64,000 nt of DNA from a virus (Duplodnaviria > Caudoviricetes), in the IMG/VR virus record IMGVR_UViG_3300031993_000027, positions 1 to 64,000 of that record; one strand, 5' to 3'. The notes beneath the pieces were generated by a model. It did not search any database and was not told the DNA's origin. It saw only the letters and a list, made by a program, of their open reading frames with translations. This document shows positions 1-61,598 of this stretch, in pieces (the first letter of the stretch is position 1; each line of letters begins with the position of its first letter). The position numbers and the translations under genes are program-made.

Positions 1-159
1 TAAAGAAAAATTCATAGTTCCATATTTTTTATATTTAATATACTGATAAGCATATTCAACCAAAGCACCTATCAATGTTGAATGTTGATAATAATTTGGT
101 TCACCTTGACAACATACAATCACATTGAATTTAGGATTTTTGCAATTTCTTTGTATCAT
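1..159 (-). CDS. small hypothetical protein (3' end outside window); near-identical paralog of 60848..61024
   Basis: ATG at 159, reads MIQRNCKNPKFNVIVCCQGEPNYYQHSTLIGALVEY...; DNA nearly identical to 60866..61024. Confidence 0.6.
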   Translation of the reverse strand, partial: MIQRNCKNPKFNVIVCCQGEPNYYQHSTLIGALVEYAYQYIKYKKYGTMNFSL

Positions 160-322
160 TCATCATCACCTTCTTTCGGAATACACCTAAGAGAATGACA
201 CTTCAAACGAATTAACAAATCACCTTCGTATATATACCCACAATCACAAACACAAATATGATGTACCATATTAAAAGCCATTGTTTTTCCGCATTTAGGG
301 CAAGTTAGAAAAATAGTATCAT

Positions 323-1815: not shown

Positions 1816-2568
1816 TCAGAAGAATTGACCATCGTGAAGTGAAGCGTTAAACACCGCACCTGCAAGTGAATCTGCGATATTCTTGGAATGGTCTGCATCA
1901 TGGTCTACACGACCTGTTTGATTATCTTGTTTAAGATTTACCAATTCGGTTATCAGTTCTTCTTGGTGTGAGAGAATCATAATTCTTCTTTCTATCAGAG
2001 CCGTTTTAAACGTTTGGTATCCGTCAGGTTTCTTATCCAAAGAAACGATAGTAGTATCTTCAAAGCCTGTTGTTTTGAATGTCTGCATCATATCTCTGCT
2101 TTGAAAACTATCAAGAGATATTCCTTTTATGTTCCAACCTAATTCGTTTTTTAAATAATATACAAATTCTCTGTCCTTCCTAAAAGATATCTCCGACCCA
2201 CTAGGACACTGAATGCCGATAGAAAATACCTGTCTGTATGCTAGTTCTTTTATTTTGGTATGTTCTTCTGTGAAGAAGCCACATCCTTGTCTATTAGTGT
2301 ATCCTAGAACTGCTACACAACTTATTCCTTTACGGTTTCCTACCAACGAACGATTAAAATGAATAAACAAAGGTTTCGTGTAGATTTCAGGCGGTACTTT
2401 TTCAGGCTCGAAAAAATCCTGATATTTGAGTTGGTCTAACATTCCGATAGTCAGGACATTTGACTTAAACGGATTGTCTTGTGGAATAATACACTTCTCC
2501 AACGATGAATAATCAATGTATTGAAGTTTTCTTTTTAGAGCCTCATGGTTAATTAAATCATTGTTCAT
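1816..2568 (-). CDS. stand-alone terminase large subunit C-terminal (RNase H-like) nuclease domain, probably inactive
   Basis: Motifs IHFNRSLVGNRKGISCV, SLDSFQS, ELITELVNL and VDHDADHSKNIADSLAGAV match the TerL nuclease layout; no ATPase domain; first catalytic Asp position is Asn. Confidence 0.7.
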   Translation of the reverse strand: MNNDLINHEALKRKLQYIDYSSLEKCIIPQDNPFKSNVLTIGMLDQLKYQDFFEPEKVPPEIYTKPLFIHFNRSLVGNRKGISCVAVLGYTNRQGCGFFTEEHTKIKELAYRQVFSIGIQCPSGSEISFRKDREFVYYLKNELGWNIKGISLDSFQSRDMMQTFKTTGFEDTTIVSLDKKPDGYQTFKTALIERRIMILSHQEELITELVNLKQDNQTGRVDHDADHSKNIADSLAGAVFNASLHDGQFF

Positions 2569-2717: not shown

Positions 2718-2736
2718 TCTTTATCACCTCTATCTT

Positions 2737-2765
2737 TCTTAACGAATTATCTCGATTGATTCTTC
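2737..2765 (-). promoter_or_regulatory. phage-specific promoter, GAAGAATCAA-N11-CGTTAAGA
   Basis: One of 7 copies with an identical 11-nt spacer, upstream of an RBS. Confidence 0.75.
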
Positions 2766-4675: not shown

Positions 4676-5575
4676 TTACAGTCCACATTCTTTAAGAAAT
4701 GCCTTTTGTTCTTCTTCCGTCATACCACCTGAATGATTGTTAGTAGGCAACGACAGTGGTGTGGAGAACGAAAGTTTAAGTTGCCCATCTATATTTCTTA
4801 ACGATTTTTCGGAATTGATTCTCTTCAACTCGTCACCGAAATAGTCGTTGGAATCTTTTACTTCAAAGAAACCATCCCAACATCTTTCTATGCTCTGATT
4901 GATAATTGCTTCTACCAATCTGACATTATCTCCACCGAGTTTTAAGAGTTTATTTACACTTGTTCTTACTGTTCCTTCTGTCTTCATTTCATATTTCTTG
5001 CCTTTTGCTTTTCTCATTTCAGCAAAATCAAGATATGCCTTAACCAAGTTAGGATTATTTACAAAGATAGGGAAGTCATCTAAGACAGTTTCAACCATAG
5101 ATTTCTTTGCTTTAGTTTCTTTAAATATATTATTATTTTTGTTATTATTTGTGTTATTATTTGGTATTGCTTTGCCCTGTGGGTCACATCCATTTGCCCT
5201 GTGGGTCACATCCATCTGCCCTGTGGGGCAAATGGACAACGAAGGGGTTTCTACGGTTTTTAAATGCAAATCAGCATACCATTTCGTCTTATCACAGGCA
5301 TCATCGTTATAACAGCCTGTCTTTATATATCCCGAATCTTCCAACTTCTTTAGCGAGGTTCTTATCTGCTTTTCAGACATATAAGGAAACTGCTTTTTGT
5401 AAGCCTTAATACTGTTATACGTCCAATAGTATCCGTCATAAAAATTCAAATTATTTTCTTCGTTATGTTCACACCAATAAGAAATATTGGCATAGAGAAT
5501 TGCTGACATTATGCCTACGTCCAAGGCAACATCAGTATCAAAATAATTCTTCCTGTTTTTGTTAGAATCGCTCAT
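4676..5575 (-). CDS. phage replication initiator protein
   Basis: N-terminal winged helix (QFPYMSEKQIRTSLKKLEDSGYI), central iterons and Asn-rich linker, C-terminal IINQSIERCWDGFF domain. Confidence 0.8.
   Translation of the reverse strand: MSDSNKNRKNYFDTDVALDVGIMSAILYANISYWCEHNEENNLNFYDGYYWTYNSIKAYKKQFPYMSEKQIRTSLKKLEDSGYIKTGCYNDDACDKTKWYADLHLKTVETPSLSICPTGQMDVTHRANGCDPQGKAIPNNNTNNNKNNNIFKETKAKKSMVETVLDDFPIFVNNPNLVKAYLDFAEMRKAKGKKYEMKTEGTVRTSVNKLLKLGGDNVRLVEAIINQSIERCWDGFFEVKDSNDYFGDELKRINSEKSLRNIDGQLKLSFSTPLSLPTNNHSGGMTEEEQKAFLKECGL
5125..5236. repeat. putative replication origin: three 22-bp iterons plus AT-rich tract
   Basis: TTTGCCCTGTGGGTCACATCCA at 5171 and 5193, degenerate copy at 5215; AT-rich 5125-5165; lies inside the initiator gene, as in lambda O. 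Confidence 0.75.
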
Positions 5576-5578
5576 ACA

Positions 5579-6274
5579 TTAGTTCTCCTGTTCCTTATAT
5601 TTCTTCTCAAATGCCTCCCACGCTTCATCCGTACCTATGTTATCAGCAACAGCGTAATCTATTGCTTTTATGACTTCGTTTATAGGAAGGTCGGAACTAT
5701 ACCACTCTCCGTCCAACCTGTATCCAAGTTTCGTGTATGTGTTGTGCATCCTTTGTTCAATATCAAAAGCAACATCGCTTTCAATCTTATAGATTAGTTC
5801 AAGAGGGAATGGTCTTGTGTCAAGTTGCGACATTCTTTTCTCTACGTTGATAGAATATCCTATTTTATATTTATCAGCGCACTTCAATATATACACAAAT
5901 CCTTTATTCCTAATCTTTTCTTGTTTTAAATTTGTTGGAAAATCAGAATCATTATTTTCTATCAATTCTGTTTTTAAAAAAGTAGTATAAAAGAACATCC
6001 TACCATTCGGTGTTTCTAAGGACAAGCAATCTATAAAATTGCTATTATAGAGACACTTTAAACATTCGATAATTTTCTCGTTAGAAATATAAGGTATAGA
6101 ATCTTTAACATCTTCAAGAGTTACGCTTGCGTATATCAGACCGTCTATAATCTTCTTTTTTGCTTTACTCATTACGCACCAACGTTTTAGAAAATGGTAA
6201 ACTATGGAAGCCTCTATCCCAATTTTCATAGCATCAACTTCAATTTCGTGTTCAATTCCAAAGCAATATCCCAT
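5579..6274 (-). CDS. GIY-YIG (T5orf172/MUG113-like) nuclease with initiator-like N-terminal domain
   Basis: GFVYILKCADKYKIGYS..VEKRMSQL...EQRMH...GEWY. Confidence 0.75.
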   Translation of the reverse strand: MGYCFGIEHEIEVDAMKIGIEASIVYHFLKRWCVMSKAKKKIIDGLIYASVTLEDVKDSIPYISNEKIIECLKCLYNSNFIDCLSLETPNGRMFFYTTFLKTELIENNDSDFPTNLKQEKIRNKGFVYILKCADKYKIGYSINVEKRMSQLDTRPFPLELIYKIESDVAFDIEQRMHNTYTKLGYRLDGEWYSSDLPINEVIKAIDYAVADNIGTDEAWEAFEKKYKEQEN

Positions 6275-8914: not shown

Positions 8915-8937
8915 GTTTCGGTAATACCTCCTGACAT

Positions 8938-8966
8938 TCTTAACGAATAAGACGGTTTGAATCTCC
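8938..8966 (-). promoter_or_regulatory. phage-specific promoter, GGAGATTCAA-N11-CGTTAAGA
   Basis: Conserved bipartite motif upstream of the sbcD RBS. Confidence 0.8.
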
Positions 8967-59367: not shown

Positions 59368-59646
59368 TCATTCTTTATCACCTCTCATATCTGTACCACA
59401 GTGCCAACAATAAGGAACTTCTATTGAACCCGAATGTATATCACTATGATGACATTTATTGCATTCGTAAAGGTTGTTACCCCCATCGTCGTAATCGGTT
59501 TCTTTTAAAATCCACTCACCTTTTGGTCTTTCATTATAAGGTGTTCCGTTTGCAATAATATTTTGGTCTACTGTGTCCGTTCTGTTAAACACACACTCTC
59601 TGCAAAATTCATAATACCTTTCGGGTATATCAATTATCAGTTTCAT
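59368..59646 (-). CDS. zinc-ribbon accessory protein
   Basis: MKLIIDIPE...GEWI...ECNKC...YCWHCG.DM. Confidence 0.7.
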   Translation of the reverse strand: MKLIIDIPERYYEFCRECVFNRTDTVDQNIIANGTPYNERPKGEWILKETDYDDGGNNLYECNKCHHSDIHSGSIEVPYCWHCGTDMRGDKE

Positions 59647-59830
59647 TGTCTGCCTCCTGTTTTGGGTATACCTGTTCGCCTCCTATCAGAACCTTAACTT
59701 GCTTCTTCTGTTCGGCTTCGAGCAATCCGTATTTGTATCCACGTTCCCATGCTTGCGCTACTATCTGTTCGATTGCCCCCTTCATTCCCTCAAGATTTTT
59801 CAGTTTTGTTTCTGTCTTTGTCTTACTCAT
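59630..59830 (-). CDS. hypothetical protein
   Basis: AGGAGG junction. Confidence 0.6.
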   Translation of the reverse strand: MSKTKTETKLKNLEGMKGAIEQIVAQAWERGYKYGLLEAEQKKQVKVLIGGEQVYPKQEADNETDN

Positions 59831-60104
59831 TGTCTGCCTCCTTTAACCTCTTATTTGTATCACCGTAATCATAACCAACAGGCACTCTCTTTTCTATCCA
59901 ATCGCCTTGCGGTCTTTTTTGACCATCTTCTAAGCCTTGAACATATCCAATATCGAAGTTATCTCTGATTTCAACTGTCGGGGCATTGTCAATCATACCT
60001 AAAACTTCATCTTTCATTATCCAAGTGTTTACACCATCATAAGAATAAGCACATTCTTTAAGCACTTCTTTCAAAGCACTACGGCTTATTAAATCATTGT
60101 TCAT
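59823..60104 (-). CDS. hypothetical protein (MNNDLISR family)
   Basis: DLISRSAL...IDNAPTVE. Confidence 0.7.
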   Translation of the reverse strand: MNNDLISRSALKEVLKECAYSYDGVNTWIMKDEVLGMIDNAPTVEIRDNFDIGYVQGLEDGQKRPQGDWIEKRVPVGYDYGDTNKRLKEADNE

Positions 60105-60288
60105 TGTCTGCCTCCTTCATATCATCAACCAAAGTGTCAATATACAATCTTGTAGTCTTTTTAGTGTGAATATCAGTACAAGCCACATATCCGTTAGTAT
60201 TTTCTATAAGGTGTCCTATTTTGTACTGTCTACCATTAAATTCAAATATTTCGCCTGTGTGCATAAATCCTATGGTTGTTTTACTCAT
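60094..60288 (-). CDS. hypothetical protein
   Basis: Coupled ORF. Confidence 0.6.
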   Translation of the reverse strand: MSKTTIGFMHTGEIFEFNGRQYKIGHLIENTNGYVACTDIHTKKTTRLYIDTLVDDMKEADNEQ

Positions 60289-60671
60289 TCTTCTTTCTCC
60301 TTATATGGTCTTGGTAATTCTTGCCAAGCAACAACTTTTGAATATGAATGGAACTCACTTCCCAAACTACCTAATGTTCGGCTGTCAAATTGTTCTTGCC
60401 AAATACCGAATTGTTCACACCCTTCATCATAACTTCCTATAAATGAATATTCATCTTCTTCGCTTTCATCTATTTTGCCCCATAGTAAGTAATCACCCTC
60501 TTCTTCGGGCAATCTCTCGCTAACAGGAATCCACTCGCCCTTTGTTCTTTCATCATAAGGTTTACCTTTCCTCAGAATATCCCTCATATCAGCACAAAGC
60601 AGAGCAGACCATTGGTTTTCTTCATCAAAACTCTTTTTCATTCCTTCAGGAAGTTCAATTACTAGTTTCAT
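60285..60671 (-). CDS. DUF551-like protein
   Basis: WIPVSERLPE...VVAWQELPRPY. Confidence 0.7.
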   Translation of the reverse strand: MKLVIELPEGMKKSFDEENQWSALLCADMRDILRKGKPYDERTKGEWIPVSERLPEEEGDYLLWGKIDESEEDEYSFIGSYDEGCEQFGIWQEQFDSRTLGSLGSEFHSYSKVVAWQELPRPYKEKEE

Positions 60672-60841
60672 TTTCTTTGCCTCTCATATTCCTTTATCCT
60701 ATCTTCTTCAAGTTCAAGATAGAAACCACATTTTTTGCAATTATGAAACGGATTCCTACAACAACAATAGTCGTGTCCGTAAATATTTGAAAAGAAGTGA
60801 TACAGTTTGAGTTTTATCTTAAAAAACAACGGTTCTTTCAT
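60668..60841 (-). CDS. hypothetical protein (57 aa)
   Basis: GAGGTG SD; ATGA overlap. Confidence 0.5.
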   Translation of the reverse strand: MKEPLFFKIKLKLYHFFSNIYGHDYCCCRNPFHNCKKCGFYLELEEDRIKEYERQRK

Positions 60842-60847
60842 TCTTTA

Positions 60848-61024
60848 TCACCTCTCATACTCTTTTAAAGAAAAATTCATAGTTCCATATTTTTTATATT
60901 TAATATACTGATAAGCATATTCAACCAAAGCACCTATCAATGTTGAATGTTGATAATAATTTGGTTCACCTTGACAACATACTATCACATTGAATTTAGG
61001 GAAATTGCATTTTCTTCGTATCAT
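60848..61024 (-). CDS. small hypothetical protein, paralog of 1..159
   Basis: Near-identical DNA. Confidence 0.6.
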   Translation of the reverse strand: MIRRKCNFPKFNVIVCCQGEPNYYQHSTLIGALVEYAYQYIKYKKYGTMNFSLKEYER

Positions 61025-61110
61025 TCCTTCTCACCCCTTCTTCTTTTAATACCTTCATAAATCATACAAGCAAGCCAACCTGCGAAAAACGATAAGAAAA
61101 TCATCATTAT

Positions 61111-61556: not shown

Positions 61557-61569
61557 AGTCTCCTACTTT

Positions 61570-61598
61570 TCTTAACGGATTTCGAGAATTAAATCTTC
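61570..61598 (-). promoter_or_regulatory. phage-specific promoter, GAAGATTTAA-N11-CGTTAAGA
   Basis: Conserved bipartite motif. Confidence 0.75.

Follow-up and report, generated by a model that had tools for sequence, protein, structure and literature searches.

The ORF at positions 1816–2568 encodes a protein, P0001, that has the homology and the fold of the nuclease domain of a large terminase (TerL), joined in frame to a leader of different origin. Active-site Asp residues have been lost, the coding sequence is a mosaic, the substitutions found only in this copy are clustered, and the gene is absent from the other phages searched. On balance, P0001 is probably a selected pseudo-enzyme that only binds. 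It would be expressed and kept by selection after losing its nuclease activity, and would act by contact with a partner of the terminase nuclease domain.

Locus and gene neighborhood

The virus record is the complete genome of an uncultured phage (127,491 bp), with a terminal repeat of only 97 bp, and the window analyzed here is its first 64 kb. P0001 is encoded by an intact ORF of 250 aa plus the stop codon. The coordinates of this ORF, its segments and the related features are collected in Table 1. The stop codon of the 50-aa ORF upstream overlaps the start of P0001 (ATGA), and the P0001 ATG is preceded, at a distance of about 9 nt, by a GAGG ribosome-binding site. Judged by eye, the 50-aa product has a hydrophobic stretch resembling one membrane-spanning segment. 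The other ORFs upstream of P0001 encode proteins of unknown function, and none of them is an adjacent ATPase half.

Elsewhere in the window, a 231-aa protein (5579–6274, minus strand) combines a T5orf172/MUG113 (GIY-YIG-like) domain with a weak N-terminal match to replication initiators. Its gene is located directly 5′ of a DnaD/O-like replication initiator at 4676–5575.

Table 1. Coordinates of P0001, its segments and related features. Positions refer to the window unless prefixed with G000:C1 or L003.
Feature	Position	Strand	Basis
P0001, chimeric ORF: borrowed leader and TerL nuclease domain	1816..2568	minus	ORF calling, BLASTP, AF2 model, Foldseek
Codons 1–16, MNNDLINHEALKRKLQ, origin in the 'DLISR' accessory family	2521..2568	minus	sequence comparison
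Codons 17–249, equal to residues 207–439 of the second TerL ORF, whole RNase H-like nuclease domain	1822..2520	minus	
Active-site island, codons 72–80: D72N, C73R, T76V, D78N, T80K	2329..2355	minus	
Second island, beta2–beta3 turn, codons 96–105: Y/F96C, D97G, G101E, E105K	2254..2283	minus	
Codon 230, AAT (Asn), GAT (Asp) in TerLs; start of C-terminal helix, SKD motif	1879..1881	minus	
Codons 106–165, tract of near-identity to the phage's own TerL gene	2074..2253	minus	DNA comparison
50-aa ORF upstream of P0001	2565..2717	minus	
Promoter-like bipartite motif GAATCAAT-N10-CGTTAAGAA, 5′ of the two-gene unit	2736..2762	minus	
Copies of the bipartite motif in the window	2736-2762, 4795-4821, 8937-8963, 61569-61595	minus	
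Further copies of the bipartite motif	near G000:C1:74503, 82542, 115986	minus	
Paralogous 'DLISR' gene with the same MNNDLI start codons as P0001	59823..60104	minus	
ORFs with the 'DLISR' module	window 1816-2568, 59823-60104; G000:C1:73035-73499, 126077-126454, 126834-127370		
Real TerL, two overlapping ORFs, outside the window	G000:C1:105322-108193 (= L003:1297-4168)	minus	

Promoter-like motif

The bipartite motif GAWTCAAT-N10-CGTTAAGAA occurs in seven copies in the genome, all on the minus strand, and the copy belonging to P0001 lies 27 bases 5′ of the 50-aa ORF. The CGTTAAGAA half has nine genomic copies, eight of them on the minus strand, with the upstream box at the same spacing in seven. 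A ribosome-binding site and a start codon are found just 3′ of the motif in five of the seven bipartite copies. The copy near 4803 is located within the 3′ end of the ORF at 4676–5575, and for the copy near 115986 no start codon was seen in the stretch read. In a scan for sigma-70 promoters and terminators, shuffled sequence scored as well.

The motif is a plausible candidate for a phage-specific class of promoters serving accessory and replication genes. A phage-specific promoter had already been claimed upstream of P0001 by a reading made from the sequence alone (hereafter the sequence-only reading). The recurrence of the element seven times on one strand agrees with that claim, while its function as a promoter is a deduction. 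Translation of P0001 would probably take place from the second position in a small accessory operon behind this recurring phage motif.

Homology and predicted fold

Searches of Pfam and PHROGs with P0001 gave zero matches. By tblastn, P0001 matched large terminases of 277 cultured phages in their C-terminal part, the best match being the TerL of Listeria phage LIS04 (38% identity, E 2e-40). HMMER retrieved 1847 relatives at E ≤ 0.001; in the 150 listed, the alignment falls on the nuclease region of terminase-sized proteins. Within the same genome, BLASTP aligned residues 16–249 of P0001 with residues 206–439 of the second ORF of the phage's own TerL, without gaps over 234 residues and at 81% identity. 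Identity to the TerLs of clade relatives is 65–75%.

The AF2 model, calculated from an alignment of 74 homologues, reached a pLDDT of 92.1 and a pTM of 0.89. Among the Foldseek matches listed from the PDB, almost all are large terminases or their nuclease domains (D6E, HK97, G20c, Sf6, SPP1, P22, T4 and herpesvirus enzymes). In BFVD the top match is a terminase (TM 0.85, rmsd 1.8), and the matches listed are again almost all terminases. The predicted fold is that of the RNase H/RuvC-like nuclease domain of terminases, with the terminase-specific beta-hairpin. The ATPase domain, with its Walker A and B motifs, is absent from P0001, and the ORF begins about 50 residues before strand beta1. The description of P0001 in the sequence-only reading as an intact, stand-alone TerL nuclease domain devoid of an ATPase domain is therefore borne out by the alignment to the phage's own TerL, by the model and by the structural search.

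The real TerL of the phage

A whole-genome search with the LIS04 TerL found two places, P0001 and a better and longer match at 105.5–106.8 kb, where two ORFs with a 62-nt overlap in an A-rich run together encode the real TerL. Of these, the first contains the TerL N-terminus, a mini-intein inside Walker A (GG/CLTGD...VAHN/SIGCGKS) and the N-half of an intein just before Walker B (KAIL/CLDEKT...). The second begins with the C-half of an intein (...VVSHN/CGILDEVNF), followed by Walker B, the remaining ATPase domain, a complete nuclease domain whose active site is intact, and a tail of about 65 residues. This arrangement is either a natural split intein or a frameshift within a single intein. A T4-like portal gene directly follows.

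Since a complete TerL with its own nuclease domain is encoded elsewhere in the genome, P0001 is an extra copy and not the C-terminal half of a split terminase. Its placement in an accessory array far from the head genes, as had been proposed, also holds, with the real TerL and the portal at 105.3–108.2 kb.

Two further observations concern this region and its relatives. Segments of about 750 nt each at G000:C1:113562–114302 and 102145–102888 share 67% DNA identity and may represent a gene pair near the packaging module that has diverged. In addition, some related metagenomic TerLs (among P0036–P0057, P0011, P0016 and P0017) carry an intein exactly at the nuclease catalytic motif. In P0038, the one sequence inspected whole, the intein lies between DH-x5 and the SKD Asp. 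P0011, P0016 and P0017 also contain HNH endonuclease domains, and their alignment to P0001 stops at this same place, residue 227. On these grounds, the nuclease region is put forward as a hotspot for homing-driven gene conversion between co-infecting phages.

Chimeric structure and the 'DLISR' family

DNA homology between P0001 and TerL spans codon 17 to codon 249 and is followed by one new codon and the stop, so that the C-terminal tail of TerL (about 65 aa) is missing. The 5′ junction, at codon 16/17, is in frame and falls at a short TA(Y) microhomology. Both junctions are located at domain borders, and the captured segment is the whole nuclease fold and nothing more.

The first residues of P0001, MNNDLI, also start the ORFs 59823–60104 (minus strand) and 126077–126454. 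The first of these is a member of the accessory family from which the start had been said to be borrowed, a point that the comparison upholds. Moreover, codons 4–17 of P0001 have 90% DNA identity to an internal stretch of the ORF 126834–127370 (minus strand), reading DLISREALKRKLQY. The helix module 'DLI(S/N/R)-x-x-(A/Y)L' occurs in five ORFs, either at the start or at an internal joint, and a IDNAPTVEIRDNFDIGYVQGLEDGQKRPQG module is also common to three of the five. This 'DLISR' family is modular, has no assigned function and has members in the relative G001 as well. The accessory genes also contain a segmental duplication of about 1.4 kb (59642–61042 versus G000:C1:126228–127491 plus window 1–175), whose pieces are 77–100% identical and which spans the ends of the record. 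The rule for capsid-targeting leaders (aliphatic-x-Glu) was considered for the N-terminus of P0001 and rejected, as the sequence reads I-N-H-E. The chimera would have arisen by ectopic recombination, which fused 16 'DLISR' codons in frame to the nuclease domain of a TerL.

Active-site residues

The phage's own TerL reads IHFDCSITGDRTG and SKDIADS where P0001 reads IHFNRSLVGNRKG and SKNIADS, respectively. In a set of 207 homologues, position 72 is Asp in 197 of the 198 aligned and position 78 in 193 of 197; both are invariant when 61 TerLs are aligned. At position 230, all 18 close TerLs have Asp. Apparent Asn residues at position 230 in 22 full-length TerLs were an alignment artefact, produced by an intein inserted at that point. 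The replacement of near-universal Asp by Asn at positions 72 and 78 and in SKNIAD, first noticed in the sequence-only reading, was thus confirmed, and full-length relatives do not carry Asn at any of the three sites.

A sequence-level profile of the 74 homologues matched no solved structure, and the catalytic residues were therefore mapped by topology only. In the AF2 model, N72 ends strand beta1, N78 is in the following loop and N230 begins the C-terminal helix. From this topology, they would correspond to D294, D300 (T4 D409) and D429 or its neighbor in the G20c TerL; topology is likewise the only guide to which of D230 and D233 is the metal-A ligand. P0001 keeps D153 (at the end of beta4), D178, D222-H223, K229 and D233, and is devoid of the conserved metal-ligating carboxylates of beta1 and the C-terminal helix, as well as of the Asp six residues on from that of beta1.

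Among the G20c TerL mutants tested, D294N, D347N and D429N had the lowest nuclease activity; these residues were called indispensable for catalysis, and D294 is expected to coordinate both metals (PMC5389553). P0001 carries the same kind of substitution at the beta1 Asp and, by topology, at the C-terminal-helix Asp. The mutant proteins could be purified for in vitro assays and were thus at least soluble (PMC5389553). They are full-length laboratory enzymes, in contrast to P0001, which is a natural stand-alone gene, and the residue equivalence between them is topological. Since the beta1 Asp is lost, two-metal catalysis, and with it two-metal DNA cutting by P0001, is very unlikely.

Private substitutions and mosaicism

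Compared with 22–24 TerLs of the clade, residues 17–249 of P0001 contain 12 private substitutions: A19D, D72N, C73R, T76V, D78N, T80K, Y/F96C, D97G, G101E, E105K, K220R and D230N. Nine of them lie within 34 residues (72–105; simulated scan p 7.5e-5). Within the island of codons 72–80, 22 clade TerLs show no variation at four of the five substituted positions; at the fifth, position 76, 21 have T and one has N. Eight of the 12 changes are at TerL-invariant sites (expected 5.2, p 0.08), and 12 changes placed at random would include positions 72, 78 and 230 with a probability of about 1e-4. Residues 66–110 have a net charge of +3 in P0001 versus −3 to −5 in ten TerLs, a shift that turns the catalytic pocket from acidic to basic.

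The remainder of the gene follows different TerLs in different segments. Over the 180 nt of codons 106–165, P0001 departs from the phage's own TerL gene only twice, both times synonymously, and this segment is read as a recent gene-conversion tract; its flanks differ from the own TerL mostly at synonymous sites. Residues 17–71 are near-identical in protein to a foreign metagenomic TerL (P0004) and not to the own TerL, and residues 166–222 match P0210, a sister-strain TerL 93% identical to the own TerL, with only two differences. P0001 thus appears as a patchwork of TerL alleles circulating in the phage population. Either it was captured from a donor that was itself mosaic, or it has been repeatedly overwritten by recombination with its own TerL or those of co-infecting phages.

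The dN/dS of P0001 versus its own TerL is 0.18 overall and 0.045 for codons 166–218. Purifying selection was not concluded from these low values, as P0210 matches the segment of codons 166–218 better than the own TerL does. In a mosaic of TerL alleles, dN/dS against the own TerL reflects the divergence between TerLs and is uninformative on constraint. Neutral drift, which had been raised as a possible outcome, is therefore not addressed by dN/dS but by the distribution of the private substitutions, whose strong clustering on the active site does not look neutral. The 250-codon frame is undisrupted and the substitutions are not spread at random, as they would be in a pseudogene. Within tracts that track living TerL alleles, the persistence of tight islands at conserved, apparently functional sites is still informative.

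Distribution

Exactly one match was obtained in every one of the 277 genomes of cultured phages that have a homologous TerL. G001, a complete relative of 128 kb, has one TerL and no second copy, and its syntenic slot is occupied by other small genes, including a 71-aa MNNDLISR gene. A near-length search of 5.8 billion proteins returned only P0001 and a TerL fragment. IMG/VR, searched by protein, by alignment and by a degenerate DNA pattern for FIHFNR...GNRKG, contained no further dead copy, and none was found in JGI metagenome contigs.

The exact P0001 protein is present on two contigs, in JGI/IMG and ENA, which argues against an assembly artefact, and the two records may come from the same phage strain. 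With no orthologue in any of the phages searched, conservation across lineages cannot be shown. The earlier term 'retained' for this fragment is consequently weaker than claimed.

Interpretation

A selected pseudo-enzyme that only binds accounts better than decaying junk for an undisrupted frame with junctions at domain borders, a confidently modeled fold, conservative Asp-to-Asn changes at three conserved acidic sites and the private islands. In the mechanism proposed, P0001 would keep exchanging sequence with its own TerL and with the TerLs of co-infecting relatives, so that most of it stays identical or near-identical to living TerL alleles. The two private islands would persist through this exchange, the beta1 Asp, the Asp six residues on and the C-terminal-helix Asp being removed and the pocket made basic. 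P0001 would thus fold as a TerL nuclease domain without two-metal cutting and act by occupying a ligand of that domain. The ligand may be DNA, or a protein that engages the nuclease domain, such as the terminase/portal assembly (its own or a competitor's) or a host terminase sensor. The change of charge and the basic pocket favor DNA, and mimicry directed at a protein partner would agree with how little P0001 differs from living TerLs outside the islands. It is also conceivable that detoxification of a stray nuclease fragment was the sole reason for selection of the Asp-to-Asn changes, and that P0001 has no positive function.

This last possibility leads to the account that comes next in probability, although clearly behind the pseudo-enzyme: P0001 may be a young recombination relic, a TerL segment copied into the accessory array by illegitimate or ectopic recombination, in which active-site mutations were fixed because a free nuclease is harmful, and which is now functionless and bound to be lost. 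The copy is found in a single phage among those searched, most of its sequence is still identical to living TerL alleles, so that it could be recent, and the surrounding array is shuffled, with the 59.6–61.0 kb segment duplicated at 126.2–127.5 kb plus 1–175 and five copies of the leader family. However, the easiest way to disarm such a fragment is a stop codon, a frameshift or a deletion, and yet the frame of 250 codons is intact. Instead, there are several missense changes, including three from Asp to Asn at conserved acidic residues of the predicted pocket, and the model is still confident. Both junctions respect domain borders, and the tight islands (p ~7e-5) stand beside tracts that differ mainly at synonymous sites, which looks like an older copy overwritten except where selection resists. 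At the far end of the scale, it is highly improbable that P0001 works as a nuclease or serves as the C-terminal half of a split terminase. It has the TerL nuclease fold and keeps D153, D178, D222-H223, K229 and D233, but the real TerL has an intact nuclease domain of its own, and the beta1 Asp found in 197 of 198 homologues is replaced by Asn, a change whose G20c equivalent, D294N, was among those with the lowest activity tested (PMC5389553).

If P0001 is a binding-only pseudo-enzyme, two special cases can be weighed for its role, both of them unlikely when taken singly. As a modulator of packaging or a poison of competitors, the slightly less unlikely of the two, the dead domain would compete with active TerL nuclease domains for DNA or for a docking site. 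Cutting of the phage's own concatemer would then be restrained, or the terminase of co-infecting relatives disabled. The basic pocket (+3 versus −3 to −5) would favor metal-free contact with DNA, and the mosaic of foreign and own TerL alleles shows frequent co-infection and recombination with relatives. On the other hand, P0001 has no C-terminal tail, which in TerL may contact the portal, by analogy with other terminases. Moreover, DNA is reported to be gripped by the ATPase domain of TerL, and the nuclease domain cleaves it (PMC5389665).

As an immune decoy, an even more doubtful case, the dead domain would bind an Avs1-3-like sensor without triggering it and so shield the real TerL. SeAvs3 makes extensive contacts with the natively folded nuclease domain of terminases, and for KpAvs2 some nuclease domains are sufficient as activators (PMC13601566), which makes a lone nuclease domain a plausible ligand of such sensors. 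The location of the gene in an accessory array, away from the clusters for packaging and head proteins, and the closeness of the domain to living TerLs outside the two islands also agree with a decoy. Nevertheless, SeAvs3 is reported to read active-site residues (PMC13601566), and these are exactly the ones altered in P0001, while EcAvs2 and Upx sense the TerL ATPase domain (PMC13601566), which P0001 does not have. The copy is not conserved among relatives. Furthermore, a paralogue of a TerL domain in T4, vs.8, is a trigger and not an inhibitor (PMC13601566). Like P0001, vs.8 is a phage gene of its own that reproduces one domain of the large terminase; unlike P0001, it copies the ATPase half, keeps the Walker motifs and activates EcAvs2 rather than blocking it (PMC13601566). 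Full-text searching of the literature found no described dead terminase-nuclease paralogue and no terminase-derived decoy.

The same nuclease domain is shared by P0001, the own TerL of the phage, its metagenomic relatives (P0003–P0018 and P0210) and SP-15-like TerLs such as that of Listeria phage LIS04. P0001 differs from all these TerLs in having no ATPase domain, C-terminal tail or inteins and in not being located beside the portal. It also differs in the Asn residues at 72, 78 and 230, the change of D97 to Gly, the basic pocket and the foreign N-terminus of 16 residues.

Significance

The value of the finding is limited by its source, a single copy from one uncultured phage, and the role given to a partner is a proposal. 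A TerL mimic that does not cut, is updated by recombination and soaks up a host sensor of the terminase fold or poisons the terminase of competitors is an improbable outcome, but if true, viral decoys derived from the very core protein that is sensed or targeted would have their first example. The private islands, set in tracts still exchanged with living TerL alleles, clearly illustrate how an ectopic copy evolves under gene conversion. Large terminases are regarded as core enzymes that occur in one copy and have little freedom to change, and for this reason several bacterial immune sensors target them. A natural copy of the cutting domain alone, predicted to be well folded and with acidic active-site residues lost, points to a second, non-enzymatic use of this fold, which may lie in the regulation of packaging, in competition between phages or in immune evasion.
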